DNA from: Lentisphaera marina
GTDB taxonomy: Bacteria > Verrucomicrobiota > Lentisphaeria > Lentisphaerales > Lentisphaeraceae
Reading direction: 5' to 3'
Assembly (NCBI RefSeq): GCF_028745505.1
Contig: NZ_JAQZZL010000001.1
Coordinates: 1,421,818-1,485,817, forward strand
Length of the DNA: 64,000 nucleotides
Shown: piece by piece, positions 4,984 to 52,648 of the stretch
Layout: each line of letters begins with the position of its first letter
Numbering within the stretch: position 1 is the first letter of the stretch
Position numbers and translations under genes: made by a program
Notes under the pieces: model-generated
Told to the model about the DNA's origin: nothing
Seen by the model: the letters and a program-made list of their open reading frames with translations, nothing else
Databases searched by the model: none

Positions 4984-6390
4984 TTAAGCGGGAAGAGCAG
5001 CTTTTAGAGCAGCGGCTTCTTCTTGAGCTTTTTTGGTAGCGACAGCAGCAACTTCTTCATCTTTCGCAGAGAAGCGAACAAAAGCAGTAGCAATACCTGA
5101 GAGTATAATTAACCCACCAAGGATTAAAAAGCTACTTGATATACCAGCTGCTTCAGCAGCTTTTGTAGTGACTTCAGAAACCTGTGTAGGATCAATAGCT
5201 GAATGAGTATTTTTACATTTTTCCCTGATGAGCCAAGCGGCTAAAACAGCACCTGCATTACCACCAGCACCAACGATGCCAGATACAGAACCGACGCATT
5301 TTTTATTGATGAAGGGAACCACTGTAAAGGTTGCTCCTTCGGCCATTTGAACGCTGAGAGAGAAAAGGATTAGAACAACGACGGCGAGTGGGAAGTAAGT
5401 AATTTGTGAGAAAGAAGCTAAAATAATACCTTCGATAACCATGATTAACATGAGGAACTGAACTCGACCTTTAAGACCTTTTTTAATACCGAATTTATCT
5501 CCCAAGAACCCACCAGTAGTACGGGCAAATATGTTCATGAGTGCGAAGCATGCTACGAGTGTTCCTGCTTGACCACGACTTAAAGCAAACTGTGCTTGTA
5601 AGTAATCATCCATTTTGCCATAAACAGTGAGTTCGATACCGAAGCAACCTGCATAAACGAGGAAGAGGATCCAGCTACGGTAGTCTTTTGCAGCCTCAGT
5701 GAAACTACCTGATTTTTTAGCGTCAAGCATTTTACCTGCGGCACGTAGATCTTTGAAGTTACCTTCAGGAGTATCTTGGGTGAATTTGTAGTAGACGAGA
5801 CCCATGATGAAGCAACTCACACCAGCAAAAGCCATAGACCACCTCCATGCTTCTGCTTCAGCAACTCCACACGCAACCACACCTAGTGCAATAATTGGCA
5901 TTATAATTCGATTAGCACCACCACCGAGGTTACCCCAGCCAGCAGAAGTAGCGTTTGCTGTGCCTACACAGTTAGGAGCAAACATGAGAGAAGTGTGAAC
6001 TTGTGTAATAACAAAAGAGGCACCAATAAAACCAATGAGAATACGACAAAAAAGGAACTGTTCAAAATTTTGAACAAAAGCTATTCCGATAACTGGAAGT
6101 GAACCGAGTATAAGCATCCAAGTGTAGCATATTCTTGGACCATATTTGTCGCATAGTTTACCTAAAAGAAGGCGAGCAAAGATAGTGCCGGAAACGGCAG
6201 CAATTACTGAAAGGTTTGCTTGATCACCAGTCATTCCTAAAGATTTTTTTACCGCAGGCATAAATGGAACTATACCGAACCATGAGAAAAAGCACATAAA
6301 GAATGCGATTGCGGTTATCCAGAATGTGCGAATTTGAGGACTCTTAAGATCCGTCAACTTTAATTTTGTGGCTTTGCCAGCTATTTCCAT
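4984..6390 (-). CDS. narK: Nitrate/nitrite transporter, MFS NarK/NasA family
   Basis: 12-TM MFS with the NarK signature GWGNLGGG; start taken at internal ATG 6390 (MEIAGK...) with AAAGGAAG SD. Confidence 0.85.
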   Translation of the reverse strand: MEIAGKATKLKLTDLKSPQIRTFWITAIAFFMCFFSWFGIVPFMPAVKKSLGMTGDQANLSVIAAVSGTIFARLLLGKLCDKYGPRICYTWMLILGSLPVIGIAFVQNFEQFLFCRILIGFIGASFVITQVHTSLMFAPNCVGTANATSAGWGNLGGGANRIIMPIIALGVVACGVAEAEAWRWSMAFAGVSCFIMGLVYYKFTQDTPEGNFKDLRAAGKMLDAKKSGSFTEAAKDYRSWILFLVYAGCFGIELTVYGKMDDYLQAQFALSRGQAGTLVACFALMNIFARTTGGFLGDKFGIKKGLKGRVQFLMLIMVIEGIILASFSQITYFPLAVVVLILFSLSVQMAEGATFTVVPFINKKCVGSVSGIVGAGGNAGAVLAAWLIREKCKNTHSAIDPTQVSEVTTKAAEAAGISSSFLILGGLIILSGIATAFVRFSAKDEEVAAVATKKAQEEAAALKAALPA

Positions 6391-6595
6391 CGTAAACTTC
6401 CTTTTTACATCATCGTAGTATATATACATAAAACGACGATTTTTCGTCTGCGTCAGTAGATTACTTAAATGCTGTGGAATATCAAACAGGAAAAATAACA
6501 AATTTACAAAAAATCTACAAAAAAGTAAAAATATATACCAAAATTACAATTACGTAAAAATATTCAGGGTGATTGTGTAGGTGCTGATAATAATT

Positions 6596-9500
6596 TTAAA
6601 CTTTATTACTTATCCAAGCACATTGGTAAGGGGCCAGTTCAATAACTGCACTTAAATCATCATAAGATTGGTCACTGAGCAAGTCATGCCAAGTTTCTGT
6701 AGCTATTAGGTTAAGTTCGACTAAGGGGATTTTTTGAACTTGGTCACTAATATTATGAATCGCAAAAATATTTTGATGGCGATCTAGGCTCTCTCTCCAA
6801 AAAGCAAAGAGGGTGCTACCTAAGTGTAAAGTATATTGAGTGGCATTTGGATGAAAAGCTGCTTGTTTGCGGCGAATTTTAATTAGTTGCTTGAGTCTAT
6901 TAAAAACCGTCATGTGGTGACTTGAGGGGTCTTGTAGTTTTTCATTTAGTTCATTAATATCCCATTGGCTACGATTGATCGAACGCGCGCGACCCGTTTT
7001 CTCAGCAAATTCGTGATCATTTTGTGTGCCAAGTAAGCTGTGGATATATATAGCAGGGATACCCTCGAGAGCTAACATAATAGTGTGGGCGCATATAAAT
7101 CGATCTAGATGCCACTGATCCGACTCAGAAGAATTGGCCTTAACGGTAGATTTAAGTGCATCAAAAAGTGAAATGTTGACTTCATAAGGTTTGTTTTGAC
7201 CATCGGGAGTCTGTCTCATAGAGATATGACCGCCAAAATTACTTAAGGTCGAAAGCATATTACTCAACTCTGTATCATTTAATAAACCTTCAGCAGGGCG
7301 CACACCTATGCCGTCATGGGAGGCTATAAAGTTAAGATAAGTACGACCTCGTTTGGCAGGAGGCATGGACATCATCCAAGTTTTGAGGTGTGAGCAATCC
7401 CCAGTCAGTAAACTATTAATTAGTAAGGGGGGTAAAGAAAAGTTATAGATCATATGAGCTTCATTATCATTGCCAAAGTAACTTAAATTCTCGCGATTTG
7501 GGACATTAGTTTCAGTGATGATTAAAGCGGATGGCTCGATGTTTTCGAGAACCAAACGGATGAGTTTTATGATTTCATGTGTTTGATGAAGGTGCACGCA
7601 TTCAGTGCCGCTTTCTTTCCACAAAAAGGCAATGGCATCGAGTCTGAAGAGCCTTACGCCATGTTTAAGGTAATCAGCCAAAATACGAATCACTTCAAAT
7701 AGGACTTCAGGATTAGCATAATTGAGGTCGACTTGGTCAGCACTAAAGGTACACCAAACAGATTTTTCCCCTTTTTCAGTTTTGAATTCTGTTAGCAAGG
7801 GGGTCGCTCGAGGTCTTACGACTTTACTGAGATCAATCGAATCTTCAGGGATAATAAAATAGGATTTTCCAGGGGATTTATCCTCGAGGAAATTCTTAAA
7901 CCATTTTGATTGACTTGAACAGTGGTTAATAACAAGGTCGGCCATGAGTTTGAACTCACTGGCAATGGCTTCGACCTCTTGCCAAGTACCGAGGTCAGGA
8001 TTAATGGCATCATAATCAATAACTGAAAAACCGTCATCAGAACTGAAGGGTGAAAAGGGTAAGATGTGAACCGAGTTAACTGTTTTGTTTAGTTCTCTAT
8101 GCAGGAAACGGTGAAGGGTTCGAAGAGGAGGTTCACTTTGGTCAGATTTTTTTATGCTGTCCCCATAGGTGATAAGGACCACATCATCTTCTGACCACTT
8201 ATCCTGTTTAGTGTTTGTCAAAGGGCTAGCAGAAAGATTTAATTGCTCCATGAGTTTATCTGTTAGAGTATTAGTACAAATATCTTTATCTAATGACCCA
8301 TAGATTTCTCTTAAATGTAGAGAAATACGCTCTTTTAAGCGTTGTGTAGAAGGAGAAAGTACCGGCGTTTGTAGTGCGGAAGTGGAAAAATCACGATGAT
8401 CTTTTTCAACGGCATCCACAAGTCGTTCAAAAATATCTGGTACGGCAGCGCTAACGCGTTTCCAGCTAGGCATAAAGGGACTTTCCATAGCTTTTTCAAG
8501 AAAGTCTTGTCCTGCGTGAAGAATGTTTTCGGCAAATAGTTCGACCGCTTGACCTTCTTTATGGCGATCATAGGATAGACCATTAATGAGGGCGTCATTG
8601 TTATAACTATCGATGAGGTCTAGTGCCATACGGTAGTAGGTTGCTTTGATAGTTCGTATTGTCCCGGTAGAAAATACGGTGCCTTGTGTCGCCATCTTGC
8701 GAAAGAGTGATTTCGCGATGTCCGCACTCATTTTAGAAAGACCTTTGGAGCGATCACTTTCAGATAAGATCTGATGTTTATGGTCATAATTGTCAGCAAT
8801 ATCAACTTGGCAGATTTGGTTGCTAGAATAATTGCGTTGCAATTCTGAGAGTACGCCCATTTCAAGTCCCCAATCCGCAGGGATTCGTATATCTTCCAAA
8901 ACATCACTTTTCATAGAGAATTCCCCTGCTAAAGCATAGCGAAAACTATCGAGATAATCCAGGTACTCATTGGGTCCACAAACCTGTTTCATAGCGCGTA
9001 TAAGAGGAGTGACCAGAAGCCTGCAGGCGCGGCCATTTAATTTCTGACTCGCAATGCGCGAGTAAAACCCCTTACAAAATTTATAGCTAAAGTTGGGATG
9101 CACAACAGGGTAAATGAGTCGAGCAAGTAAATCGCGCTTATAGGTGAGGATATCACAGTCGTGAAGGGCGACAGCTTTAGCTTTTTCAGTAGCTAAAATA
9201 TAACCGAACATGTACCAAACATTTCTTCCTTTTCCCGGGTGTGGAGGGGCTAGATCATAGGACTGGAGCAAGGCATCGATGGCGCGGAGTCGAGGTCCAT
9301 CATGCCACATGACTTGAGGTTTTTGCGGGAGGCAATTAAAAAATTGTAGGGCATTGCGGTATTGGTCTTCATCGGCACGGTCCAGTCCGACAACAATTTG
9401 CTTTAAGTAATCCACATCTCTAAGTTCTTCGACAATATTAGCTAATGCGGGACCTTCTAATTCAGAGTAAAGGGAAGGCAATAATAATGCCATTGGTTTT

Positions 9501-9601
9501 TTTTTACTAAAAGTCCTTAGCTCATCTTCTAATTCGTTGATCGGTCGTTGGTTAAGGCTGTGAAGAGTTGTTACAATACCGTGCTGATGAAAATCACCCA
9601 T
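6596..9601 (-). CDS. Bifunctional protein: N-terminal GT-A glycosyl-3-phosphoglycerate synthase-like domain (GpgS/MpgS-like) fused to C-terminal GH13_18 sucrose-phosphorylase-family glycoside phosphorylase
   Basis: N-terminus has a GT-A DxD region (ALHDCDIL); C-terminal half carries sucrose-phosphorylase hallmarks ILPFSPFSSDDGFSVIDY, LVINHCS, FRLDAIAFLWKESGTECVHL, IASHDGIGVRP. Confidence 0.6.
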   Translation of the reverse strand: MGDFHQHGIVTTLHSLNQRPINELEDELRTFSKKKPMALLLPSLYSELEGPALANIVEELRDVDYLKQIVVGLDRADEDQYRNALQFFNCLPQKPQVMWHDGPRLRAIDALLQSYDLAPPHPGKGRNVWYMFGYILATEKAKAVALHDCDILTYKRDLLARLIYPVVHPNFSYKFCKGFYSRIASQKLNGRACRLLVTPLIRAMKQVCGPNEYLDYLDSFRYALAGEFSMKSDVLEDIRIPADWGLEMGVLSELQRNYSSNQICQVDIADNYDHKHQILSESDRSKGLSKMSADIAKSLFRKMATQGTVFSTGTIRTIKATYYRMALDLIDSYNNDALINGLSYDRHKEGQAVELFAENILHAGQDFLEKAMESPFMPSWKRVSAAVPDIFERLVDAVEKDHRDFSTSALQTPVLSPSTQRLKERISLHLREIYGSLDKDICTNTLTDKLMEQLNLSASPLTNTKQDKWSEDDVVLITYGDSIKKSDQSEPPLRTLHRFLHRELNKTVNSVHILPFSPFSSDDGFSVIDYDAINPDLGTWQEVEAIASEFKLMADLVINHCSSQSKWFKNFLEDKSPGKSYFIIPEDSIDLSKVVRPRATPLLTEFKTEKGEKSVWCTFSADQVDLNYANPEVLFEVIRILADYLKHGVRLFRLDAIAFLWKESGTECVHLHQTHEIIKLIRLVLENIEPSALIITETNVPNRENLSYFGNDNEAHMIYNFSLPPLLINSLLTGDCSHLKTWMMSMPPAKRGRTYLNFIASHDGIGVRPAEGLLNDTELSNMLSTLSNFGGHISMRQTPDGQNKPYEVNISLFDALKSTVKANSSESDQWHLDRFICAHTIMLALEGIPAIYIHSLLGTQNDHEFAEKTGRARSINRSQWDINELNEKLQDPSSHHMTVFNRLKQLIKIRRKQAAFHPNATQYTLHLGSTLFAFWRESLDRHQNIFAIHNISDQVQKIPLVELNLIATETWHDLLSDQSYDDLSAVIELAPYQCAWISNKV

Positions 9602-9636
9602 GGTGTTCTCCTTGTTTTAGACATCATTTGTCTTTG

Positions 9637-11421
9637 TTAAAATTGTATTCCATAGAGGGATAGAAAAAGTTCTTTTATGGCTTGCTGCCAAGCGGTGGGC
9701 CCGCTTTCGGTACATTTGATTGTATGAGGGGCAGATATTTCAAATGCAGCATGTTTTTTGTTAGGGATCAAAGCGCCTATGTCAGCTTTATTGAGCATTG
9801 TTTGATCATTAGGGCTATCTCCAAGGGCAACGACTAGCCAATGATCTGAAGTCTGTGTTTTAATATAATGGGATCGTAAGCTTTCAAGGGCGTCGGCTTT
9901 GTCGGCTTGTCCCATGAGGTGGATAAATTGACCGCCACGAATGACTCTGACGCCATGATCTTCGAGGCTCGCTTTGAACTCGGTGAAATTCTCAAAACTA
10001 TCATACCATAAGATAGGTTCAGTGGAATTGCGTTGTTTTGCTAAGTTCGCAGACTGTGGCTTAAGTCCAGTGGCAGAGCTTATTTCTTCCGCAGTCATAT
10101 CACTAAAACCAGTAAATTTATAATTGTGTTTCTGACGTAAGTTATGCGCTAGCTCTAAGATTGATTTTAAATCAATTGAACTTACAGAAATCTTGTAGTT
10201 TTCATGGTCGGGGTAAGCAATGATTCCACCGTTTTCAGCGACGATGGGTGTTGGTGGTGTTTTGAATTGTTGCTGAATTTGTTCAGCTAAAGGGATCATT
10301 TCCACAAGAGTTTTACTTGAATTGAAAATGACAGGGAAAGAAACTTTAGACAATTGTTCTAGGCTTTGATTGGCAGCTGCCCAACTATAGTTTTCATCTA
10401 GTAAGCTAGCGTCGAGGTCAGTAACCACTATGAGTTTAGACTTACTAATGTAGGGCGGCCAGTTTGATTCCTTATAAGATTGAGTATCGATCCCATGATT
10501 TTCGTTGAGATAAAAGGTGAGATCGCTTTTTTGAGGCATATCTTCAAGCATCCATCGAGTCAGCCTTTCATAGTGCATAATAAAGCGTTTCAACTGAGAG
10601 CTATTCATAATTTGAGAACTAGCACTCGGGTCAGTCTGTTGCTTTAATAATCGTTCTTCTTGTTGACTTCGCCATAGGTGAATACGTTCGAAATTGGGTG
10701 CTTTCAGCATAGCTAAATAGTCGAGTTTGCTGAAAAGGGCTTGGTAATCTTCCGTGAGTTGCTCGTTGATGTAGTGGCGCCAATGACCTTCTGGGTCCTC
10801 TAGCTGCTCTAGTTCATTAACATGTTTTTCTAGATGTTCGATGGCTTGTGGCTCGGCGCCAATACACCAACCTTCAAGAATAATGACATCAATAAATTGA
10901 TCTGGTAAATCGTCTCCATCGGGGAAGCGGTCATCTATGGCTTTATTGAATCTTGGGATTTGTATGTTTGAAATCTTTTCATCATCGGGTAGTGCCGTCA
11001 AACTGTCTAAGATTTGCTTAGCGAGTTGAAGGTCATGCGTGCCTGGGACCCCTCGCGTTTTTAAAAGTGGATGAATCGAATCGGCTAATTCGTCTCTTTC
11101 TTTTTTCGTCAAATAGAAATCATCAATGGAAAGAGTGATGACATTAAGGCCGTATTCCTGCAATAATTCTTTGAGTAAATCTGCGAGGGTTGATTTGCCA
11201 GTTCCTTGCGCACCATTGATGCCAAGAACAAAACTTTTCTTTTGCTGAGTTTTCTTTTCTTGTGACCATTGAAGTAAATTTAGGGACAATGGGAGGTAAT
11301 ACTGCCAAGCGGTACTTAAAAAAGAAGAAGGCAGTTCGTTCTTTTTGATGAATTTTTTTATAAAAGCTAAATGTGAGGAGGCTTTTTTACGCTCTGAGTC
11401 AAGCTTTGATTGGTCTTTCAT
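9637..11421 (-). CDS. Bifunctional protein: N-terminal P-loop D-glycerate 3-kinase-like domain (PRK/uridine-kinase fold) fused to C-terminal HAD-IIB glycosyl-3-phosphoglycerate phosphatase-like domain
   Basis: Walker A GINGAQGTGKSTL plus IDDFYLTKKER (glycerate-3-kinase family motif); C-terminus has HAD motif I VVTDLDASLLD and MpgP/GpgP-like cap region. Confidence 0.55.
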   Translation of the reverse strand: MKDQSKLDSERKKASSHLAFIKKFIKKNELPSSFLSTAWQYYLPLSLNLLQWSQEKKTQQKKSFVLGINGAQGTGKSTLADLLKELLQEYGLNVITLSIDDFYLTKKERDELADSIHPLLKTRGVPGTHDLQLAKQILDSLTALPDDEKISNIQIPRFNKAIDDRFPDGDDLPDQFIDVIILEGWCIGAEPQAIEHLEKHVNELEQLEDPEGHWRHYINEQLTEDYQALFSKLDYLAMLKAPNFERIHLWRSQQEERLLKQQTDPSASSQIMNSSQLKRFIMHYERLTRWMLEDMPQKSDLTFYLNENHGIDTQSYKESNWPPYISKSKLIVVTDLDASLLDENYSWAAANQSLEQLSKVSFPVIFNSSKTLVEMIPLAEQIQQQFKTPPTPIVAENGGIIAYPDHENYKISVSSIDLKSILELAHNLRQKHNYKFTGFSDMTAEEISSATGLKPQSANLAKQRNSTEPILWYDSFENFTEFKASLEDHGVRVIRGGQFIHLMGQADKADALESLRSHYIKTQTSDHWLVVALGDSPNDQTMLNKADIGALIPNKKHAAFEISAPHTIKCTESGPTAWQQAIKELFLSLYGIQF

Positions 11422-11495
11422 ACTTTCCCTTCATTTAGTTTTAGATACGATATAGAAGTTCTTGTGTCATCAATTAATACCTATATATCTATTTA

Positions 11496-11520
11496 AAAAG
11501 CGGGCCGAAGCCCGCTTTAT
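11496..11520 (-). terminator. Rho-independent terminator ending the cytochrome operon
   Basis: Perfect stem AAAGCGGGC-cgaa-GCCCGCTTT followed on the minus strand by TTTTT, right after the DUF3365 gene stop. Confidence 0.75.
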
Positions 11521-11528
11521 GTCATATC

Positions 11529-12128
11529 TTAGTTCATTGGAATACGTATAACAACTCCGCCCATGACTTCGCCCATAGCAAAGTCAGTTCTAGGACTATC
11601 TTTGTGATCGTTGTGGCAGTCGATGCATGCATCAGAAACTGCGACGTCCGGATAAACTGCAGTATAGAACTTTTTGCCACCGAGATCTTCAGTACCATAA
11701 AAGTTTTTACCTGGATTAGCACCAATGTATTTCAAGCCTTCTTTCTCCATGGGAGTCTTTGGAGCATTTTGCTTGTTAATAGGCCACTCTGACTGTAAAG
11801 AGTATGTGAAACCAGGGTTTTGTTCCATGGCTAGGTCACGTGCATAGCGGAACATTTGAGCTGGTAGCATGACACCATTTTCTTTGTCTTCCCATTTTTC
11901 GTGGGGTTTAATGATCTTCTTTTCTTTACCTAAGTTTTTAATAACGTGTTTCGTGTAGGCTGTACGAGTACCTTTCATAACGGCAAATAATGCATCGGCC
12001 ATTTTTTCTGGTTTTACACTTTCTTCTGCAGCTGCAGGAGCAGCGGCGGGTTCGGCAGGTTTGTTGCAAGAAGTTAAAAAGCTAGCTCCAAAAGCTAGAG
12101 TTAAACATGTTGTTGTGATGAATTTCAT
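11529..12128 (-). CDS. DUF3365 family haem-binding lipoprotein
   Basis: Lipobox LTSC, single CIDCH haem motif, overall match to the DUF3365 family that accompanies multihaem cytochrome operons. Confidence 0.6.
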   Translation of the reverse strand: MKFITTTCLTLAFGASFLTSCNKPAEPAAAPAAAEESVKPEKMADALFAVMKGTRTAYTKHVIKNLGKEKKIIKPHEKWEDKENGVMLPAQMFRYARDLAMEQNPGFTYSLQSEWPINKQNAPKTPMEKEGLKYIGANPGKNFYGTEDLGGKKFYTAVYPDVAVSDACIDCHNDHKDSPRTDFAMGEVMGGVVIRIPMN

Positions 12129-12222
12129 GATGGTTATTCCTTGAATTGACTATGGTGGTTATGCCTGCAAAATTGTTTTTCTTGTTGAGGTCGATAAATG
12201 TAATGTTTCTATATATGCCTCC

Positions 12223-13494
12223 TTATTCTCGTTCTTTCGCCCATTTGAGCGAGGGGATCTCTTTACTTGGAGATCGATTAAAATTGTGCTGAATGAGCTC
12301 CTCATCAGCAAGAGCGTTAATGGAAAATTCTAAACCGTGGCACTTCATGCACGCACTACGAATCATTTTTTCGTTGGGACGCAGATTATTATTTTGATTA
12401 TGATCGACGATGACCTTGCCATGTTTCTTTATTCGTGGCATGTGACAAGTTGCACAAGAGACACCTTTATTAAATTCGCCCATTTCGCTATCTATTCGCC
12501 AGTATGTGTAGTGCGGCGATTTTTTGTAGTTGAGTGAATGGCTATCATTATGGCATTTTAGGCAGGCATCCATGGCGGCAGTTCTTAAGCTAAAACGGTG
12601 GTCATTGTGGCAACTAATGCAGTTAACTTCGCGGTGTGCAGCAGAGGCTTTCATTTCTAAACGTGCATCAGCAACTTTCATTGCAGGTAGGCCAACACTT
12701 AAACGCATGCCATGGCGACCTTCTTGGAAAGATTTGCTCTCATCTTTATGGCATTTCTGGCAGGTTTGCCAAGGGACTTTATTGTTCCAAGTTTTGTCCT
12801 CTTCATTTTCATGGCATGCACGACAATTCACCCCAGCCGCCGCGTGAGCCGTGGAACTCCAGTCATGAAGGATTTGAGGATTAGGTAATTCGGGTGAATC
12901 GTGTTCTATGAGGGCTTTTTTCTTATCAATTTTTTTGTGGAGCGCCAACTCGCTAGCTGCGTGTAAGTGGTCATCTTCTCCGTAGTGATCGACTAAGAAG
13001 TCTTCGTATAAGGCACGGTTGTCGTGATAGTTGTGACAGCCTGCAGTTGCACAAGTCTGAAAATCTAAACCCTTATGGGATTCACGTTCTTCGCCAATTT
13101 CGCTGTGGCACTCGAGGCAATAATTTTCAGGTAGAGTGACGCCCATTTTCCCTGTAGAGTGAGGTACATGCTCGCTGTGGCAAGTGACGCACTTTCGTCC
13201 ATCTAATTTTTGAACCATTTCAAAATTACGAGGATCATTAAATTTATTAGCAGGGTGAGAATCCTGAGAGTCCTTTAAATCTTGTTGGTGACAATCGATG
13301 CAGGCATTTTCTTTAATACCCATATTGGGAGTATGGCAAGCATCGCATTTTAATTCGATTTGATAGTGACCATGGCTCGTTTCATTAGGTAGAAAGTTGG
13401 GCTTCAGTTCTTCATTGAGCAACTCATTTCCAAAGAAAATAGAAGCGAGGGTGCTGAGGATGATCCAAGCAAGTATGGGGATGAGTGTTTTCAT
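12223..13494 (-). CDS. Periplasmic multihaem cytochrome c (10-11 haem-binding motifs), membrane-anchored
   Basis: Motifs CDACH, CIDCH, CVTCH, CLECH, CATAGCH (CX4CH?), CRACH, CQKCH, CISCH, CLKCH, CATCH, CMKCH; N-terminal signal/anchor MKTLIPILAWIILSTLASIFF; ATG at 13494 overlaps the upstream stop (ATGA). Confidence 0.85.
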   Translation of the reverse strand: MKTLIPILAWIILSTLASIFFGNELLNEELKPNFLPNETSHGHYQIELKCDACHTPNMGIKENACIDCHQQDLKDSQDSHPANKFNDPRNFEMVQKLDGRKCVTCHSEHVPHSTGKMGVTLPENYCLECHSEIGEERESHKGLDFQTCATAGCHNYHDNRALYEDFLVDHYGEDDHLHAASELALHKKIDKKKALIEHDSPELPNPQILHDWSSTAHAAAGVNCRACHENEEDKTWNNKVPWQTCQKCHKDESKSFQEGRHGMRLSVGLPAMKVADARLEMKASAAHREVNCISCHNDHRFSLRTAAMDACLKCHNDSHSLNYKKSPHYTYWRIDSEMGEFNKGVSCATCHMPRIKKHGKVIVDHNQNNNLRPNEKMIRSACMKCHGLEFSINALADEELIQHNFNRSPSKEIPSLKWAKERE

Positions 13495-15434
13495 AATGAG
13501 AAATAGTAGGCTTGTAAGATGTGAAAAGTAATGAGCACGGGAATGGGCCAAAAGACGAGAAAATGAATAAAGGTGATTTGTCGACGCCAACGACGACAGA
13601 AAGCGGCAACTCTATTCGTTCCATAAAATTCAAAACTAGTGGTGAAACCCGTAATAACTCCAAATAAATTCATGGTAGTAAAAGTCCAGAATAAGTAGGC
13701 GTTGATATTTTTTCCTGGGTTGAACCCAGTATGAAGCATAAGGATGATAAGACTAATCAAAGCGAATACAGCATGAGAAACACGCCATAAGTTGTAGTTG
13801 CCAAAGCGGAAAAATTTAAAGCGCTTTCTTAGACTAATAGCAGCGGCAAATAAAGTGAATGCGAGGATTGAGAAACCAGTAATTTGTCTCCATAGGCCCG
13901 AGCGTAAAGTTTGACTGATTTTGTAAGAAGTAGAGTTGTAGGAATCTATATTCCAGTACACAGGAGAGAAATAGATTACAGCAAGAGCGACTACGCAAAG
14001 ACTTGAGAAGATTAGTAAGCCGCGGTTGGGTTTGTTTCGTAATTCAACTTCTTTGCCTGCGAGTTGGGCAATAAGGCCTTCGCAAGATCCACAAGCTGTA
14101 CAGGCACCAGTTTCTTTTTTGAGCGTATCAATATTGTTGTTACAGGTTTTGAAGCACTGAACAATTTCACCTTTAGAAACTTTGAGGCAGTTACAGATGA
14201 TTGTTTCGTCAGGCCATTTTTCAACTGAATCACTTATATTCCAAAAGCTACCCGTTTCTAAAAAGCTATTGATTTCTTCATCTGTTACTAGCATGCGGTT
14301 TTCGATAGCACTTTGAATACGACCAAGATCGGACCATTCACCGATGCCTATAGCGCCAACTAAATGCTTTTTGTCAAAGTTGAGCATGCGATAGCTAGTT
14401 TTATCTTTGTAGACTAAAGATTTAAATGGTTGAAGTGCAGCACCTAAGCTGACGACATTTTCTCCTAAAAGTTTGAGGCGGGTGGAGGTGTCGGCTCCTT
14501 CGAAAGTTTTTTCTTGACCAGAGAAGTTAGCCGCAAGAACTTCGGCCATTTTATAACCTGGAGCAACGAGGCCATAGACCGTGTTTTGGTGGCGAACGCA
14601 CTCACCCATAGCATAAACATTAGCTTCAGAAGTTTTTAGCTGGTCATCACAAATGATGCCTCCGCCAAGAGATACATCAATTTTAGCTTTTTCTGCTACT
14701 TGATGATTGGGACGAATACCTGCCGAAACAACGATGAGGTCACAGTTTATGCTTTCTCCATTTTTAAAGTGAATTTTTAGGCCAGTTTCTCCTCCGGAAA
14801 TTTCTTTACTGGCAGTCCCCGTGTGGACAGTGAAGCCTTTTTGTTCGATGCTTTCTTTTAAGCGTTCAGAGGCTTCGGGGGTTAATTGGCGCGGCATTAA
14901 AAAATCGGCCATTTCTACGATGTGAGTTTCTAAGCCCTGAGCTTGGAGGAAGTCAGCAGCTTCGATGCCTAATAAGCCACCACCAACGACGACGGCGGTC
15001 TTTTTATTTTCGGAAAAAGTGCGGATGGCATCCACGTCTTCGATAGTTCTATAAGTAAAAACACCTTTTTTTTCAACTCCAGGTATGGGAGGGAGAAAGG
15101 CGGATGAACCTGTTGCAAAAATTAGTTCATCATAGGGATACATTTGCCCAGAATCAGTTTTTACTATTTTGCTTTTGGGTTCAATTTGGGCAATGCTCTC
15201 ACCTAAGCGTAATTCAATGTCATTATCCTTAAACCATTTTTCATCACTGAGTTGGATACTTTTGAAATCCTTGTTACGTGCATAAGTTGTCAGTTGCACG
15301 CGATCGTAGGCTAGATGCTTTTCTTTACTGAAAATGATCAATTCATATTTGTTCATGAGACCAAGTTTTACAAATTGGTCACAGAAGTGCTTGGCAACCA
15401 TGCCAAAGCCGATGATGATCATTTTTTCTTTCAT
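13491..15434 (-). CDS. Fusion flavoprotein: NirB-like FAD/NAD(P)H pyridine-nucleotide-disulfide oxidoreductase plus BFD-like [2Fe-2S] domain plus C-terminal ferric-reductase-type (FRD) di-haem transmembrane domain
   Basis: FAD site IIGFGMVA, NAD site VVVGGGLLGIEAA, BFD cysteines CNC...CTACGSC; C-terminus has about 6 TM helices with His pairs spaced 14 residues apart (SHAVFALISLIILMLH; IHFLVFWPIPVLITFH) typical of bis-haem b ferric reductase domains. Confidence 0.7.
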   Translation of the reverse strand: MKEKMIIIGFGMVAKHFCDQFVKLGLMNKYELIIFSKEKHLAYDRVQLTTYARNKDFKSIQLSDEKWFKDNDIELRLGESIAQIEPKSKIVKTDSGQMYPYDELIFATGSSAFLPPIPGVEKKGVFTYRTIEDVDAIRTFSENKKTAVVVGGGLLGIEAADFLQAQGLETHIVEMADFLMPRQLTPEASERLKESIEQKGFTVHTGTASKEISGGETGLKIHFKNGESINCDLIVVSAGIRPNHQVAEKAKIDVSLGGGIICDDQLKTSEANVYAMGECVRHQNTVYGLVAPGYKMAEVLAANFSGQEKTFEGADTSTRLKLLGENVVSLGAALQPFKSLVYKDKTSYRMLNFDKKHLVGAIGIGEWSDLGRIQSAIENRMLVTDEEINSFLETGSFWNISDSVEKWPDETIICNCLKVSKGEIVQCFKTCNNNIDTLKKETGACTACGSCEGLIAQLAGKEVELRNKPNRGLLIFSSLCVVALAVIYFSPVYWNIDSYNSTSYKISQTLRSGLWRQITGFSILAFTLFAAAISLRKRFKFFRFGNYNLWRVSHAVFALISLIILMLHTGFNPGKNINAYLFWTFTTMNLFGVITGFTTSFEFYGTNRVAAFCRRWRRQITFIHFLVFWPIPVLITFHILQAYYFSL

Positions 15435-15533: not shown

Positions 15534-16334
15534 TTATGCGTGCTTTTTCTTTAATTCTTCTTGTTCTTCTAAGAATGAAATCAAGTGCTCGCGGTAAGGG
15601 TAATAATCTGGATGATTTAGCAGTGTTTGACGGTCTCTAGGGCGAGGGAGGTCATTAATTAAAATATCTCCTAAAGTTGCCTTCGGACCATTAGTCATCA
15701 TAATGACACGGTCTGATAAATAGAGGGCCTCATCAACATCATGTGTCACCATAAGTGTAGTGAGTTTGTGTTCAGCATGAAGTTTAACGATAAGATCTTG
15801 TAGTTCGTACTTTGTGAGTGCATCGAGCATGCCTAAAGGCTCATCGAGTAACATGATTTTTGGCTTGAGGGCAAAAGCTCGGGCAATACCAACGCGTTGA
15901 CGCATGCCACTGGAAAGCTCTTTTGGTTTTTTCTCGATAGCTCCACCTAAACCCACGGCGTGAAGGTAATGCATAACAATTTCTTCTTTTTCTTTAGCTG
16001 ATGCATGTGGGTAAACTTTTTTTACACCGAGCATGACATTGTCATAAGCACTGAGCCAAGGAAGGAGGCTTGGAGCTTGGAAAACGACGCCACGATCAGG
16101 GCCAGGGCCATTGATTTCTTTATCGGCAACTGCAACAGAACCTTTGGTAATGTCGTTGAGCCCTGCGGCCATAGAGAGGATAGTTGACTTGCCACAGCCT
16201 GAGTGTCCGATGAGGCAAACAAATTCTGATTCTGGTATCTGTAAACTAAAGTCTTCTAAAACGACAAAAGGGCCTTTTTTAGTTTCGTAAACTTTACTTA
16301 AATTTGATAGGTCTAAATAACGGTTTTTATCCAT
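15534..16334 (-). CDS. Nitrate/bicarbonate-type ABC transporter ATP-binding protein (NrtD/CmpD-like)
   Basis: Walker A GHSGCGKST, signature LSSGMRQRVGIARA, Walker B IMLLDEP. Confidence 0.8.
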   Translation of the reverse strand: MDKNRYLDLSNLSKVYETKKGPFVVLEDFSLQIPESEFVCLIGHSGCGKSTILSMAAGLNDITKGSVAVADKEINGPGPDRGVVFQAPSLLPWLSAYDNVMLGVKKVYPHASAKEKEEIVMHYLHAVGLGGAIEKKPKELSSGMRQRVGIARAFALKPKIMLLDEPLGMLDALTKYELQDLIVKLHAEHKLTTLMVTHDVDEALYLSDRVIMMTNGPKATLGDILINDLPRPRDRQTLLNHPDYYPYREHLISFLEEQEELKKKHA

Positions 16335-16343
16335 GGTTTAACC

Positions 16344-17195
16344 TTAAATTGCTGCTGGAGCGATGTCAGGTAGCGGGTAACTGTTGCTATCTGTCGTCTC
16401 GTTTAATTTTTCTTTGCGCTTTTCTTCGTTTAAGAAGCTAATAACTTCTGCACGTAAGCGACGGAATTCTTCGTTTTTATTGAGAGTTTTACGATCTCTG
16501 GGGCGAGGAATATTGATTTCAAATGATGGGCCTAAAGTGGCATTTGGACCGATGCTTATAGGTATGATTCTGTCGGCCATGTAGAGGCCTTCATCCACAT
16601 CATTAGTGATGAGAACAATAGTCTTGCCAGTGGATTTCCAAATATCGAGGATTTGATCTTGAAGAACCGAACGAGTTAGGGCATCTAGAGCACTTAAAGG
16701 CTCGTCCATGAGCAAGATATCCGGATCCATAGAGAGGGCGCGTGCCACAGATACGCGTTGGCGCATCCCTCCTGATAACTCTTTAGGTTTTTTGTGAATC
16801 GCTGGGCTTAAGCTTACCATATCGACATACTTTTCAATGATGGCTTGTCGTTCAGTCTTTGATTTGTCTTTGTATATTTGGTTGACTGCTAAGCCCACAT
16901 TGCCCTCAACTGATAACCAAGGAAGTAGGGAGTAGTTTTGAAAAATAACACCACGGTCTGGTGCAGGACCAGTGACAGGTTCACCTTTACTTCTCACTTC
17001 ACCTTCACTTGGCTCGAGTAAGCCACCCATGAGGTTGATGAGTGTGGATTTGCCCATTCCAGAAAAACCTACGATGGCAACAAATTCCCCCTTTTTAATT
17101 TGAAGGTTAATATCTTTAAGGATTTCGGCGCGATTTTCCTTTTCGCCAAAATGTCTTGAGACATTATTGAGTTCTAAAATATAATCCATTTTCAA
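16344..17195 (-). CDS. Nitrate/bicarbonate-type ABC transporter ATP-binding protein (NrtC/CmpC-like, single domain)
   Basis: Walker A GFSGMGKST, signature LSGGMRQRVSVARA, Walker B LLMDEP. Confidence 0.8.
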   Translation of the reverse strand: MKMDYILELNNVSRHFGEKENRAEILKDINLQIKKGEFVAIVGFSGMGKSTLINLMGGLLEPSEGEVRSKGEPVTGPAPDRGVIFQNYSLLPWLSVEGNVGLAVNQIYKDKSKTERQAIIEKYVDMVSLSPAIHKKPKELSGGMRQRVSVARALSMDPDILLMDEPLSALDALTRSVLQDQILDIWKSTGKTIVLITNDVDEGLYMADRIIPISIGPNATLGPSFEINIPRPRDRKTLNKNEEFRRLRAEVISFLNEEKRKEKLNETTDSNSYPLPDIAPAAI

Positions 17196-17202
17196 ATCCA
17201 GG

Positions 17203-18720
17203 TTAGGCTGCTACGTCGTCGTTAAAACTCACGAGTTTTTGGAAGACTGACATGATGCGGTCGAGCACGGCTCCAATGAGGCCAATGATAAAGATACATA
17301 CGATAATATTAGCGAGAGACTCAACTTTATTGTTTTGGTATTCTTGGTCAATAAACCAACCGAGTCCGCGTGAAGTTGCCATCATTTCTGCAACAATGAG
17401 TACCATCCAGCCCACACCGAGTGTAATGCGAAGTCCTGTGAAGATGTAAGGGATTGCAGATGGGATGACAATTTTGAAAATGCGATCAAACCAGTTGAGC
17501 TTAAGAACTTTTGCTACGTTCATGTGATCTGGATCCACAGAGCTTACACCAAGTGCAGTGTTAGAGAGTGTCGCCCACATAGAGCAGAGCGCTACCGTGA
17601 TACCAGCGTGAAGGAAGGTGTTCTTTAAAATTTCTCCAGTTAGAGCATTGTCACCCACAAAAATACCGTCGATAATTTGGATTGTGATTAATACCCAAGC
17701 AAGAGGGGAAACAGGACGGAAAGTTTGGATCAGTGGGTTTAAAGCAGTCATGATAGAAGGACTCAGCCCACATAGGATACCCATGGGGATAGCAATACCT
17801 GCGGCTAGACAGAAGCCAAAGATTACAGTCGTGATACTGAGCTTAATATAGTCAACAATACTACCATTAGAGTTGTATTCCTTTCCTTTGAAAATTTGCT
17901 TTTCAAAAGCGTCGAGTTTCTTCTTGTTAGAGATGATTTTCTTCTCGAGTTCATCTTTATTGAGTGCGGCTTGGTAGGCGATGTCCTGTTGGTAGTAGGT
18001 ATCAATTTTTTCGATTTTCTTAATCAGGCTTTTTGCCGTGTTTTCACTGCTTTTGTAAATGCGAACCAAGTTGCCTTCGAATACAGCTACGCGACGGTTA
18101 TTTATATTAGCTAGTTTAGATAGACTTTCATCAGAGAGTTTAGGTTTTCCATCAGGGCCTAAAACAGCTTTGTTATTTTCGTCAAAGACAAATTTTTTGA
18201 GAGAGTTTAGCTGAGTTGTCATAGCTGTGACTTGCGCTTTTTTATCCGCTTCAGCTTTGTCTACTATTGCCTGATTAACCTTGATCTCGTTTTCGAGTTG
18301 ACTTAAGTGTTTAAGTATTACGGCCTTAATAGAGTTGATTTTAGAAGTTAAACTCTTTTTTGTTTCTAAAGAAGTCGTTTTTTGTCTTTGCTCAATGAGT
18401 TCAGCGACACTGATTCGCAATTCTTCGTTAGTTTTAAATTCTTCTTTATTAAATTTTTCGCTCTTGTGGGTGGCCCACATAGCTTTGGCCTGACTTAATA
18501 CGTATGAGGGTCCAGGAAGTTGGCCAACAGATGTTTTGATTTTTGTTGAGCAGTAGCTCCAAATCATAAAAAAGCTTACCATTGCGGCAAGGGGTAGGGC
18601 TATTTGACGAGAAAGATCGCCGATTTGTTCTTTTGGGTCGTCCCCCGTGCATAGTCGCACAATAGGGATGAACCATGTAAGTCCAGTTAATTCGAAAAAG
18701 TTAATGAGCTTTTGTTTCAT
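17203..18720 (-). CDS. NrtB/CmpB-like ABC permease with a ~250-aa coiled-coil insertion between TM1 and TM2
   Basis: N-terminal TM1 and C-terminal permease core with the EAA-like region (AIPYIFTGLRITLGVGWMVLIVAEMMATSRGLGW) are split by a long K/E-rich predicted coiled coil. Confidence 0.65.
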   Translation of the reverse strand: MKQKLINFFELTGLTWFIPIVRLCTGDDPKEQIGDLSRQIALPLAAMVSFFMIWSYCSTKIKTSVGQLPGPSYVLSQAKAMWATHKSEKFNKEEFKTNEELRISVAELIEQRQKTTSLETKKSLTSKINSIKAVILKHLSQLENEIKVNQAIVDKAEADKKAQVTAMTTQLNSLKKFVFDENNKAVLGPDGKPKLSDESLSKLANINNRRVAVFEGNLVRIYKSSENTAKSLIKKIEKIDTYYQQDIAYQAALNKDELEKKIISNKKKLDAFEKQIFKGKEYNSNGSIVDYIKLSITTVIFGFCLAAGIAIPMGILCGLSPSIMTALNPLIQTFRPVSPLAWVLITIQIIDGIFVGDNALTGEILKNTFLHAGITVALCSMWATLSNTALGVSSVDPDHMNVAKVLKLNWFDRIFKIVIPSAIPYIFTGLRITLGVGWMVLIVAEMMATSRGLGWFIDQEYQNNKVESLANIIVCIFIIGLIGAVLDRIMSVFQKLVSFNDDVAA

Positions 18721-18785
18721 AGTGATTTATTCCTGCAAGTTTCCGCTTAGTGTGTCCCTCCCGCAGGAGGGACTGGTTTTATTAT

Positions 18786-20150
18786 TTAAGGTGCTTTGAT
18801 TTCGAAACTATCGATGTAGTCGTTGGGTTTAGTGCCATCATAGGCTTTGCCGTCAATGAAAATGTCTTCTGCAGTTACAGGTTTGAAACCAGTTTCGTCA
18901 TCTCCAGGAATTTCGCTTTCTTCAATATTGCCTTCTTCAACGAGGAGCTTGGCCGCTTCCATGTAGAGGTCTGGTTTGTAGATTTTTTCAGCTGTCTTCT
19001 TGTACCATTCGTCAGATTGATCTTCTTTGAGCTGCCCCCATCTGCGCATTTGAGTGAGGAACCAAACACAATCAGAGTAGAAGGGGTAAGTGGCGTTATA
19101 TCGGAAGAATACGTTAAAGTCAGGCATTTCTCTGCGATCACCGCGTTCGTAAACAAAAGAACCAGTCATTGAGTTACGAAGAATTTTAGCTTCTGCACCT
19201 ACATAGTGTGATCTAGAAAGGATTTGAACAGCTTCTTCACGATTTTCCATAGAAGCATCTAACCATTTACCAGCACGAATGAGCGCTTTCAGAACTGCAG
19301 TGTGAGTTTTTGGGTGTTTTTTAGCCCATTCTTCAGTGACACCAAATACTTTTTCAGGATTGTTTTTCCAGATTTCATAGTTAGTTACGACAGGTACACC
19401 GAGTTGCTTACCATCTTTTTCAGCAAATACAGCTTTCTGGTTCCATGGTTCACCTACGCAGTAACCGAGGATGGCGCGACTGTTGAGGTAAGAAGGCATG
19501 AGTGGTGGCGCATTAGGAGAAATAATAACTTCTGCATCGGTATGGCCTTTAGAATCAGATTCAGTATAGAAGCCTGGGTGAATTCCTGCAGCCGCTAGCC
19601 AATAACGCAGTTCATAGTTGTGAGTAGATACGGGGAATACCATGCCCATGTTGAAAGGTCCATCCCATTCTTCAAGAACTGGCTTGAGGGCATCGGCTTT
19701 AATAGGGTGAATTGGCTTGCCATCGGCATCCTTGGGAACGTGCTCTTTCATTTGTTCCCACACATCAGTTGCCATTGTGATACCATTACCATTCAGGTCC
19801 ATGCTGAAAGCTGTAATAACATTAGCTTTTTGGCTTACACCTACTGTAGCACCAATAGGTTGACCAGCGAGCATGTGAGCGCCATCCAAAGCGCCTTTAA
19901 TAACGTTGTCCAAAAGAATAACCCAGTTTTTTTGAGCCGTTAATTTTACATTGAGGCCTTCTGCTTCAAAGAAGCCTTTCTCTTTAGCAATAACAAGTGA
20001 AGCACAGTCAGTGAGCTTAATGAAGCCAAAGTGAAGGTTAGTTTTTTCAACATCCAAAGGGATGGTGTTTTCGTCGACGCTCTCCGCCATTGTAGGGATG
20101 GTGCAAAATAGGAAAAAGCTTAAAAAGGCTTTTCTGATTTTATGTTTCAT
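18786..20150 (-). CDS. NrtA/CmpA-like periplasmic substrate-binding protein of a nitrate/bicarbonate ABC transporter
   Basis: 454 aa (size of NrtA/CmpA, not TauA/SsuA); signal peptide; first gene of the four-gene ABC operon. Confidence 0.7.
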
Positions 20151-20488: not shown

Positions 20489-21427
20489 TTAGGGGCAGTA
20501 CTTTTGGTAGAAGTGACGGAATTGGTTGTAGGTCATTTGTAACTGTCGTGCTGCCTCGCTCTGATTGCCTGCGCAATCTTCGTAGGCTTTTAAAATTAGT
20601 TTGCGTTTAAAGTTCTCTACTCGTTCGTCATAGCTTAAACCCAAGTAATCAGCACCCGAAATAATAGCGGGGAGTTCATGTTCTTCTATATATGGCGTAT
20701 CACCAAAGAGGTAGAGTCGTTCAACAATATTTTTGAGCTCTCGAATATTACCTGGCCAATAATAGTCCATGAGAATCTCTATTGTATTACTACGGAATTT
20801 ACGTTCCTGCAAAGAAGGCATTTCTTCGTGAAGTAATTTTACGAAATGAACAATGAGCGCCGGAATATCATCCTTTCTTTGACGTAGAGAAGGGAGTTCG
20901 ATTTCAGCAAAAGTGAGACGGTCATATAAGTCGCGACGAAAAAGCTTTTCCTCCATGAGTTCTTCGAGATTTGCGTTTGTCGCAGAAATGAGGCGAACGT
21001 CAACTTGGATGGCTTTGGAGCTACCGACACGTTCAAAAGTTTGGTACTCAACCGCACGTAAGATTTGTTCTTGGAAATTCATCGGCATAATACCGACCTC
21101 ATCCATAAAGAGACTTCCTTTATCAGCCTGCTCCATACGACCAATTCGTCTTTCATTCGCTCCCGTGAAAGCGCCTTTTTCATGACCAAACATTTCCGAA
21201 GCAATAAGCTTTTCGGTAAAAGCTGCACAGTTTATGGTGACAAAATTTTCTTGAGCACGTGAACTAGCGCGGTGAATATAATTCGCCATCAGTTCTTTAC
21301 CTGTTCCCCGTTCACCTCTAATTAAAATAGGGCGAGGGACCTTAGCGATTTTTGCGACTTTCGCAAGTAATTTTTGCATCACTTTTGATTGTGCGATTCC
21401 AGTATATTCCATAATTGTAGCTCCCAT
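20489..21427 (-). CDS. pspF: Sigma-54-dependent transcriptional activator lacking an N-terminal receiver/sensor domain (PspF-like)
   Basis: AAA+ sigma-54 interaction domain with GERGTGKE Walker A, GAFTGA motif, WPGNIRELKN, C-terminal HTH; about 312 aa with no regulatory domain; divergent from pspA as in the enterobacterial psp locus. Confidence 0.8.
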   Translation of the reverse strand: MGATIMEYTGIAQSKVMQKLLAKVAKIAKVPRPILIRGERGTGKELMANYIHRASSRAQENFVTINCAAFTEKLIASEMFGHEKGAFTGANERRIGRMEQADKGSLFMDEVGIMPMNFQEQILRAVEYQTFERVGSSKAIQVDVRLISATNANLEELMEEKLFRRDLYDRLTFAEIELPSLRQRKDDIPALIVHFVKLLHEEMPSLQERKFRSNTIEILMDYYWPGNIRELKNIVERLYLFGDTPYIEEHELPAIISGADYLGLSYDERVENFKRKLILKAYEDCAGNQSEAARQLQMTYNQFRHFYQKYCP

Positions 21428-21603
21428 TAATCTCTTTATGGCTATACAAATAGAGCCGATTTACAGACTTTCAAGAATGTGGGGTTTTTCAATAAGTCAT
21501 CTATTGAGAAACCATAATTTATTTGCGCTTGATTAATTATTCAAAATAAATTAATTAATGTAAGTGTTTATTTATAAATATTTTATGTATTTTGATTGGT
21601 GGT

Positions 21604-21619
21604 TTGGCACGGGTTTCGT
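21604..21619 (+). promoter_or_regulatory. Candidate sigma-54 (-24/-12) promoter for the pspA operon
   Basis: TTGGCACGGGTTTCGT: good -24 element (TGGCACG), degenerate -12 element (TTCG rather than TTGC); lies about 45 bp upstream of pspA ATG, divergent from a PspF-type activator gene. Confidence 0.4.
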
Positions 21620-21662
21620 TCTATGTTCACCATCTCAACAAAAATAAACGAGGAAACAAAAA

Positions 21663-52639: not shown

Positions 52640-52648
52640 GGGTCTCTC

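Follow-up and report, generated by a model that had tools for sequence, protein, structure and literature searches.

A three-gene module of Lentisphaera marina predicted to pass electrons from NADH to a periplasmic multihaem cytochrome c

The 64,000-nucleotide stretch of the Lentisphaera marina genome analysed here (contig NZ_JAQZZL010000001.1, positions 1,421,818 to 1,485,817; termed the window below, with coordinates counted from its first nucleotide) contains a three-gene operon that probably encodes an NADH-driven electron-export chain. The first gene fuses a NirB-like flavoprotein and a [2Fe-2S] domain to a di-haem membrane domain, the second encodes an 11-haem cytochrome c and the third a haem lipoprotein. 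The module is conserved, widespread and apparently undescribed, since full-text literature searching returned no description of either the fusion or the module. A probability of roughly 0.7 can be given to the architecture of the electron path. The full statement, in which this chain also serves N-oxide detoxification or salvage in nitrate assimilation, stands at about even odds. The elements of the operon are as follows.

13491..15434, (-) strand: fusion gene (647 aa), NirB-like flavoprotein with BFD [2Fe-2S] and di-haem membrane domains (open reading frame, Pfam, NCBIfam, full-length homologues)
12223..13494, (-) strand: 11-haem cytochrome c gene (423 aa), signal-anchored (ATGA overlap, haem motifs, Pfam, fold and profile matches)
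11529..12128, (-) strand: sCache_haem (DUF3365/Tll0287-like) lipoprotein gene (199 aa) with one CxxCH (PF11845, 71 bits)
11492..11518, (-) strand: intrinsic terminator at the operon end (sequence and folding)

In the proposed pathway, NADH (possibly NADPH) would give up electrons to the NirB-like FAD domain on the cytoplasmic side, and these would pass from FAD to the BFD-type [2Fe-2S] cluster and then across the membrane by way of two haems b, held by four invariant histidines on transmembrane helices (TM) 3 and 5. The outer haem b would reduce the membrane-anchored cytochrome, whose C-terminal half, with its HAO/NrfA/ONR fold, may in turn reduce NO, nitrite or hydroxylamine in the periplasm. 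The Cache_haem lipoprotein may provide a further redox partner or a ligand-binding site, as may a monohaem cytochrome c lipoprotein where one is present. The chain would be accessory to nitrate assimilation, clearing or salvaging N-oxides that leak from nitrate and nitrite reduction, and in most genomes a cytoplasmic globin, presumed to be an NO dioxygenase, would work alongside it. Outward electron flow from NADH is downhill and is helped by the membrane potential, so that this is likely to be the only thermodynamically sensible direction.

The fusion protein

Four domains can be placed along the fusion.

14583..15422, (-) strand: residues 5-284, FAD/NAD(P)H pyridine-nucleotide-disulphide-oxidoreductase domain (Pyr_redox_2, E 7e-53)
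14295..14486, (-) strand: residues 317-380, rubredoxin-reductase-type C-terminal domain (Rubredoxin_C, PF18267, E 1e-10)
14061..14201, (-) strand: residues 412-458, BFD-like [2Fe-2S] domain (Fer2_BFD, PF04324; Pfam, profile and conservation)
13503..14024, (-) strand: residues ~471-644, five-helix membrane domain (AlphaFold2 model, histidine conservation, topology)

The flavoprotein part carries the Rossmann motifs GFGMVA and GGGLLG, and an acidic residue at the end of the second beta-strand (E174) suggests a preference for NADH. The NCBIfam model of NirB, TIGR02374, is matched collinearly over positions 1-468 of its 794, with a score (442 bits, cut-off 578) that falls short because the sirohaem half is missing; no Pfam match to NIR_SIR was found in the fusion, which thus lies outside full-length NirB. 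The Fer2_BFD match of the window protein is at the borderline (25.5 bits on the whole protein and 26.1 bits on a C-terminal fragment, for a cut-off of 26), while all 31 relatives compared have the domain (best E 2.9e-12). The family profile matches solved Bfd, the bacterioferritin-associated ferredoxin, with an E-value of 1.8e-8, and Cys414, 416, 448 and 451 do not vary among 114 full-length homologues, whose identities span 34-89%. By sequence, this segment is assigned to the BFD-like [2Fe-2S] domains.

These results bear out the initial annotation of the locus, made from the sequence alone, which had seen in this gene the FAD, NAD(P)H and BFD domains of the N-terminal part of NirB, with a membrane domain in place of the sirohaem/4Fe-4S domain. 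That the fusion might be a frameshift or assembly artefact can be rejected, since every relative examined has it at full length (more than 100 protein clusters with 97-100% coverage, and 84 loci as well). Six relatives are longer, at 980-1262 aa, and were considered as different fusions; that idea was dropped too, as they have the same architecture with an added 400-600-aa low-complexity linker, rich in Pro, Ser and Arg, that separates BFD from the membrane domain. The existence of these variants implies that the 2Fe-2S domain need not be rigidly attached.

In the AlphaFold2 model of residues 405-647 (predicted local distance difference test score 89) a small BFD domain is followed by five long helices, with an additional short amphipathic helix in the first outer loop. 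H554 and H568 lie on TM3 and H624 and H638 on TM5, each pair 14 residues apart, and all four are invariant in the 114 homologues. The initial annotation had counted six membrane helices with histidine pairs at this spacing; the spacing stands and the helix number is corrected to five. Lys and Arg residues number 14 in the predicted cytoplasmic segments and three in the periplasmic ones, which fits a topology with a cytoplasmic flavoprotein, as had been expected for the FAD domain, histidine-bearing helices that run from inside to outside and a periplasmic C-terminus. In this arrangement H554 and H624 would hold a haem b on the cytoplasmic side and H568 and H638 a second on the periplasmic side, haem b occupancy being a prediction. 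The spacing of 14/14 compares with 14/13 in NOX2, whereas the haem ligands of FdnI are split over three helices.

The family to which the membrane domain belongs is a separate matter. No Pfam family was found for the C-terminal 180 residues. Ferric_reduct (PF01794) gave no match to the window protein even at E <= 10, and was matched by five of the 31 relatives, all below cut-off (best E 0.0019). DUF4405 (PF14358) was matched by 16 of them (best E 0.0043), all under the 26.7-bit cut-off and so outside that family, and Ni_hydr_CYTB (PF01292) by the window protein (E 0.0039, 17.4 bits, cut-off 30.1) and, also sub-threshold, by 12 relatives; a few more such matches of the relatives fell to other families. 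We take these families to belong to a single Pfam clan, that of two-haem cytochromes. With hhalign, no match was obtained to Escherichia coli MsrQ (probability 0.3%) or to E. coli YodB, and the best membrane-haem structural neighbour is CybB, not NOX5. The description 'ferric-reductase-type' in the initial annotation is thus not sustained. Among 1.84 billion representative proteins the domain was found in 546 matches, always at the extreme C-terminus of this architecture; apparent stand-alone versions were discounted, the short matches being N-terminally truncated fragments. With sub-threshold family matches scattered, profile comparisons empty and the domain confined to the fusion, it is best regarded, from sequence and model, as distinct, unclassified and divergent within the di-haem cytochrome b fold class.

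The periplasmic proteins

The stop codon of the fusion gene and the start codon of the cytochrome gene overlap as ATGA (cattATGAaa), as had been noted when the locus was annotated. This overlap places the cytochrome start at 13494 and gives a protein of 423 aa, rather than the 455-aa open reading frame that begins with TTG. The cytochrome has ten CxxCH motifs and one CxxxxCH, hence 11 haem sites, all of which are invariant among its homologues; these are ~50% identical across phyla, compared with ~37% for the flavoprotein. An N-terminal hydrophobic helix of ~20 residues is confidently modelled and has no obvious cleavage site, and the protein is on that account read as signal-anchored.

The N-terminal half, with five haems, gives cytochrome c3-type Pfam matches. 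The C-terminal half, with six, has in its structural model the HAO/NrfA/ONR fold: the top Foldseek match is HAO (probability 1.0), and no structural relatives other than N-oxide enzymes were found. With the family profile, matches were obtained to NrfA (E 1e-9), to TvNiR, an ONR (E 6e-9), to NrfA of E. coli (E 3e-7) and to MccA (E 2e-4), and residues 357-419 align with positions 228-283 of PF02335 in a partial match of 32.4 bits. The protein has no CxxCK motif and thus lacks the CxxCK and five-haem pattern of NrfA itself. Haem 9 falls opposite the CxxCK or catalytic haem of NrfA and TvNiR, in segments whose alignment is not significant alone. All members of the HAO/NrfA/ONR homologous group reduce nitrite or NO in vitro (PMC9250108).

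The third gene encodes a member of the sCache_haem family (PF11845, Tll0287-like/DUF3365; 71.1 bits, cut-off 24.1) with the lipobox LTSC and one CxxCH, in keeping with the CxxCH lipoprotein named in the initial annotation. In 73 module-linked members the CxxCH is 99-100% conserved and the lipobox Cys is also kept, together with a set of conserved Tyr, Arg and Met residues that includes no distal Cys. The mature window protein has no Cys outside the CxxCH, which does not allow Cys/His axial ligation, and extra Cys residues occur in 20 of the 73 relatives, none of them conserved. As a distal Cys is not conserved, a different and possibly exchangeable sixth ligand is likely; Met189, Tyr58, Tyr109 and Tyr159 are conserved candidates for this position. 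A recent preprint redefines the family as haem-c-containing Cache domains and reports that members fused to signalling modules bind NO tightly, that stand-alone Cys/His-ligated members resemble redox proteins, for which redox roles are proposed, and that superoxide is readily formed from O2 by Cache_haem proteins in vitro (bioRxiv 10.64898/2026.02.01.703092).

The operon ends as the annotation had proposed. Twenty bases past the DUF3365 gene, a 9-bp GC-rich hairpin is followed by a T-run; it was not picked up by a consensus terminator scan and was confirmed by folding (-16 kcal/mol, z = -4.6, with none of 200 shuffles folding equally well).

Distribution, role and alternatives

A scan of species-representative genomes gave at least 397 confirmed matches to the fusion, spanning Lentisphaerota, Verrucomicrobiota, Planctomycetota and Proteobacteria; it was also found in one metagenomic contig and in Poribacteria. 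Its presence elsewhere in the Planctomycetes-Verrucomicrobia-Chlamydiae (PVC) group, suggested as a check when the locus was annotated, is thus established. The best 80 of these at least 397 matches, with groups assigned by hand, are distributed as follows.

Gammaproteobacteria: 25/80
Verrucomicrobiota: 23/80
Planctomycetota: 21/80
Betaproteobacteria: 4/80
Lentisphaerota: 2/80
Alphaproteobacteria: 2/80
no group assigned: 3/80

Gene linkage was counted in 83 loci, which are the 85 clustered loci minus one duplicate record and one locus without a called fusion open reading frame. Globins and assimilation genes were sought within 10 kb.

multihaem cytochrome immediately downstream, on the strand of the fusion (gap of 10 bp at the median): 80/83 loci (96%)
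Cache_haem gene: 71/83 loci (86%)
any globin: 53/83 loci (64%)
monohaem cytochrome c lipoprotein: 35/83 loci (42%)
NrtA-type binding protein or its permease: 30/83 loci (36%)
any nitrate-assimilation gene (binding protein, permease, NirA-type sirohaem reductase, ANTAR/NasT-type regulator or NarK): 39/83 loci (47%)
NirA: 11/83 loci

The tight coupling of fusion and cytochrome in the window is therefore a conserved feature of the module. No NapC/NrfH/CymA-like gene recurs across the 85 loci, which extends the absence of such genes reported for the window. The quinone independence proposed on that occasion is something we still infer from sequence.

The globin is usually a cytoplasmic S-type single-domain protein (48 of the 85 clustered loci). 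In five gammaproteobacterial loci a truncated haemoglobin (PF01152) is found with a Fer2-FAD-NAD (Fer2-FNR) reductase, a replacement by a non-orthologous protein through which the module retains a globin. Globins are typically NO dioxygenases. In one locus the module is inserted within an nrt operon, and in several Planctomycetota it lies immediately after NirA and a CysJ-like flavoprotein. The fold of the cytochrome, the placement of the module among nitrate-assimilation genes and the globin partner together suggest NO, nitrite or hydroxylamine as the substrate. The N-oxide role also agrees with the existence of NO-binding proteins in the Cache_haem family, and with the lack, in the module-linked members, of the Cys ligand that marks the redox-inert type. 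Detoxification or salvage is favoured over a role as the primary nitrite reductase because NirA adjoins the module in 11 loci and globins are the commonest accessory; both associations are additions to the initial annotation, and both point the same way. A characterised parallel is found in Bradyrhizobium, where a flavoprotein and a globin are tied to nitrate assimilation and protect against the NO that it generates (PMC4724949).

In the window the nitrate connection is provided by two transport systems, both of which had been recognised at the outset.

15534..20150, (-) strand: nitrate/nitrite-type ATP-binding cassette (ABC) transporter, comprising NMT1_2 binding protein, permease and two ATPases (Pfam)
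4984..6501, (-) strand: NarK-family nitrate/nitrite transporter of the major facilitator superfamily (TIGR00886, E 1e-85, 288 bits, under the curated cut-off of 312 bits)

The four-gene ABC transporter, whose NMT1_2 binding protein is of the NrtA/CmpA type, lies 99 bp upstream of the fusion gene on the same strand, and narK lies downstream of the module, also on the same strand. Lentisphaera profundi has identical synteny, including the arrangement of the ABC transporter. Domain scans of the window proteins found no NirA, NirB or NasA within the 64 kb.

Several observations count against an NADH-driven N-oxide reductase of this kind. The operon in the window has no globin of its own, no assimilation gene lies within 10 kb in 53% of the 83 loci, and 15 of the 83 have neither a globin nor an assimilation gene at that distance. 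A periplasmic reductase is also an odd partner for an importer that brings nitrate into the cytoplasm. In the cytochrome, 11 invariant non-motif histidines would suffice to make all 11 haems bis-His, leaving none five-coordinate, the haem registers obtained from local alignment to NrfA and to ONR disagree, and the N-terminal half of the model is of low confidence, unlike the well-modelled C-terminal half with its six haems. Finally, the closest structural neighbours of the membrane domain, CybB, HyaC and FdnI, react with quinones, so that a quinone site in this domain is conceivable.

The last point leads to a reading in which the membrane domain is a quinone-reactive cytochrome b, working either as part of an NADH:quinone oxidoreductase or in quinol oxidation that feeds the cytochrome in the manner of CbcL, NrfH or CymA. 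The sub-threshold Ni_hydr_CYTB matches in 12 of the 31 relatives would agree with it. However, an NADH flavoprotein and a 2Fe-2S domain are covalently fused in every member, which makes quinol input unnecessary, the membrane domain is always paired, and often translationally coupled, with a periplasmic cytochrome, and the quinone-reactive family matches no better than DUF4405 or Ferric_reduct; this reading is accordingly improbable. Rather more can be said for the idea that the module is itself the assimilatory reductase of nitrite (or hydroxylamine) to ammonium, with nitrite exported, for example by NarK, reduced by the cytochrome on the periplasmic side with electrons that originate from NADH, and the resulting ammonium re-imported. 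The position of the module 99 bp downstream of the nitrate-type ABC transporter and in the same direction, with narK nearby, would suit this role, as would the failure to find NirA, NirB or NasA in the window, the membership of the cytochrome in a group (NrfA/ONR/HAO) that makes ammonium from nitrite, and the derivation of the flavoprotein from NirB. Yet the 11 loci with a NirA-type sirohaem reductase directly beside the module have no need of it as a nitrite reductase, the strongest accessory association, with globins (64% of loci), points to NO, over half of the loci lack a nearby assimilation gene, and export followed by re-import would be wasteful. The assimilatory reading is thus considered unlikely, at around one chance in a handful.

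Electrons might also be exported for other purposes. A general NAD(P)H-to-periplasm exporter would serve a non-nitrogen acceptor, for instance ferric iron or another metal, a species of oxygen or peroxide, or an enzyme that carries out repair in the periplasm, and the cytochrome would be a wire only. The same logic operates in NOX, the ferric reductases and MsrQ, the 11 invariant candidates for distal histidines would allow bis-His ligation throughout, the monohaem cytochrome c lipoprotein in 42% of loci is a typical shuttle, and the reduction of O2 to superoxide by Cache_haem proteins in vitro is of the right kind. Against this, the module is repeatedly embedded in nitrate-assimilation clusters across phyla and is associated with globins, its cytochrome is better conserved across phyla than its flavoprotein and has solely N-oxide enzymes as structural relatives, and no metal-uptake or peroxidase genes recur near it in the clustered loci, which leaves this reading with little probability. 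Least probable of all is that the fusion acts mainly in the cytoplasm, as a Flp-like NAD(P)H reductase for assimilatory nitrate reductase, the globin or both, with the membrane domain as a tether or regulator. There is a precedent in Bradyrhizobium, in its operon narK-bjgb-flp-nasC, where a flavoprotein and a globin encoded with nitrate-assimilation genes remove NO (PMC4724949), the loci with S-type globins have no other dedicated reductase, and the variants with flexible linkers of 400-600 aa show that BFD is not rigidly docked on the membrane domain. A plain anchor, however, would neither preserve four invariant histidines at haem-ligating geometry nor need a near-obligatory 11-haem cytochrome in the periplasm, and a cytoplasmic reductase role and an export role are in any case not mutually exclusive.

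If the export chain is as proposed, a bolder interpretation of the whole module may be entertained, although it is offered tentatively and is more likely wrong than right: that aerobic marine and soil heterotrophs have in it a widespread and hitherto unrecognised reductase of the periplasm, driven by NADH and independent of quinones, which turns nitrite, NO or hydroxylamine into ammonium (or N2O), uses NOX-like logic built from unrelated parts, and belongs to the nitrate-assimilation regulon. It would then represent a third route for nitrite and NO, neither respiratory dissimilatory nitrate reduction to ammonium (DNRA) nor cytoplasmic sirohaem assimilation. The 'nirB' and 'nrfA/hao-like' genes of this type in Planctomycetota, Verrucomicrobiota, Lentisphaerota and many Gammaproteobacteria would encode that route, and the stand-alone Cache_haem protein would be a ligand-binding or terminal site of the reductase.

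The more restricted reading, of an electron-export chain accessory to nitrate assimilation, also has consequences. In public databases the fusion is annotated as 'FAD-dependent oxidoreductase' or 'nitrite reductase (NADH) large subunit', and the cytochrome as 'cytochrome c3 family' or 'ammonia-forming cytochrome c nitrite reductase / NrfA'. Since the module genes are labelled as NADH nitrite reductase and NrfA, gene-centric nitrogen-cycle surveys probably arrive at wrong counts for assimilatory nitrite reduction, DNRA and 'hao' in abundant marine heterotrophs that belong to the PVC group or the Gammaproteobacteria. In Phycisphaerae, related cytochromes appear to be caught by HAO models: one genomics paper on that group lists 'hao-like octahaem' genes, without a partner, which may belong to the module cytochrome family. 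The chain would allow bacteria to carry electrons from NAD(P)H through the membrane with no part played by quinones, its components being a flavoprotein of the NirB type, a BFD cluster and a di-haem domain that is unclassified. It would place stand-alone Cache_haem proteins, on whose role the 2026 preprint does not decide, in a definite genomic and physiological context, and would provide a testable link between nitrate assimilation and the control of nitrosative stress in aerobes.

Other genes in the window and in related loci can be noted briefly. Between the module and narK lie two large genes (6596-11421, (-) strand), one for a 1001-aa protein with a sucrose-phosphorylase-like alpha-amylase domain and the other for a 594-aa protein with P-loop and HAD-phosphatase domains. 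The pair also adjoins the module in L. profundi and in two gammaproteobacterial loci, and has the appearance of compatible-solute synthesis, possibly within a nitrogen-limitation regulon. An outer-membrane beta-barrel of the Alginate_exp type (3411-4703, (-) strand) recurs beside the module or the nitrate-type ABC transporter in 24 of the 85 related loci, in several phyla, and is a candidate anion (nitrate/nitrite) channel. Seven loci, among them the one with the module inside an nrt operon, contain a fusion of a 4Fe-4S dicluster domain with a DmsC-like membrane anchor; it adjoins NirA-type reductases and a CysJ-like flavoprotein in nitrate-assimilation clusters and may supply electrons from the membrane to assimilatory nitrite reduction.

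Upstream of the transporter, at 20489-22361, pspA, followed by a YqiJ-like gene, lies divergently from a sigma-54 activator that lacks a receiver domain. The activator was considered as a nitrate regulator and rejected, because it is divergent from pspA and resembles PspF; the group looks like a PspF-PspA stress module. At 51299-55237, (-) strand, a PSCyt1/PSCyt2/PSD1 (DUF1549/DUF1553) protein and a DUF1501 protein form the 'planctomycete cytochrome' pair common in PVC bacteria. A 712-aa open reading frame (23683-25821, (+) strand) has no Pfam match, and one of 1733 aa lies at 25964-31165, (+) strand. An Rfam scan of the entire window gave no family at gathering score.

Relation to known systems

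Each component of the module is of a known kind, and the principle by which it would operate is also found in NOX, FRE and MsrQ; what is new is the combination, along with the family of the membrane domain. With those proteins it would share the order of carriers, from NAD(P)H through flavin and two stacked haems b to an acceptor on the outer side, and it shares the placement of histidine pairs on TM3 and TM5, which run from inside to outside after a cytoplasmic N-terminus. The fusion differs in having five helices rather than six and a multihaem cytochrome c as the predicted acceptor. Its flavoprotein is also of another kind and at the other end: NOX has a C-terminal FNR-like domain, whereas the fusion begins with a NirB/rubredoxin-reductase-type flavoprotein of two dinucleotide folds, together with a 2Fe-2S domain. 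The resemblance to NirB is one of direct homology, since the N-terminal ~460 residues (FAD, NAD and BFD 2Fe-2S) are homologous and collinear, and the membrane domain stands where NirB has its sirohaem/4Fe-4S catalytic half.

The cytochrome shares its C-terminal fold and local sequence motifs (E 1e-9 to 1e-6) with HAO, epsilon-HAO, IhOCC, ONR and NrfA, all of which are periplasmic N-oxide enzymes. It departs from them in having 11 haems (not five or eight), no CxxCK and an N-terminal membrane anchor, and in that neither a catalytic haem nor active-site residues can be identified in it. Its partner, moreover, is an NADH-linked membrane flavocytochrome, in contrast to NrfH, NrfBCD or cytochrome c554. 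The stand-alone, CxxCH-containing type of the third protein is that of the sCache_haem family; it is lipid-anchored and, compared with Tll0287 and the Pseudomonas putida protein, lacks the distal Cys. Its linkage in an operon to an electron-export chain is a context absent from the Cache_haem preprint.

Like the Bradyrhizobium operon, the module pairs an FAD/NAD(P)H flavoprotein and a single-domain globin with nitrate genes (the globin not being in the window operon), whereas Flp is soluble and has no membrane haem domain, periplasmic cytochromes or Cache_haem. NrfH, CymA, NapC, CbcL and ImcH are likewise inner-membrane feeders of periplasmic multihaem cytochromes, and in CbcL a di-haem b domain likewise stands alongside a multihaem c domain. 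These feeders depend on quinol, and no homologue of them recurs in the 85 loci. The module would fill the same place at the inner membrane with a fused NADH flavoprotein, rather than the quinol pool, as its point of electron entry.

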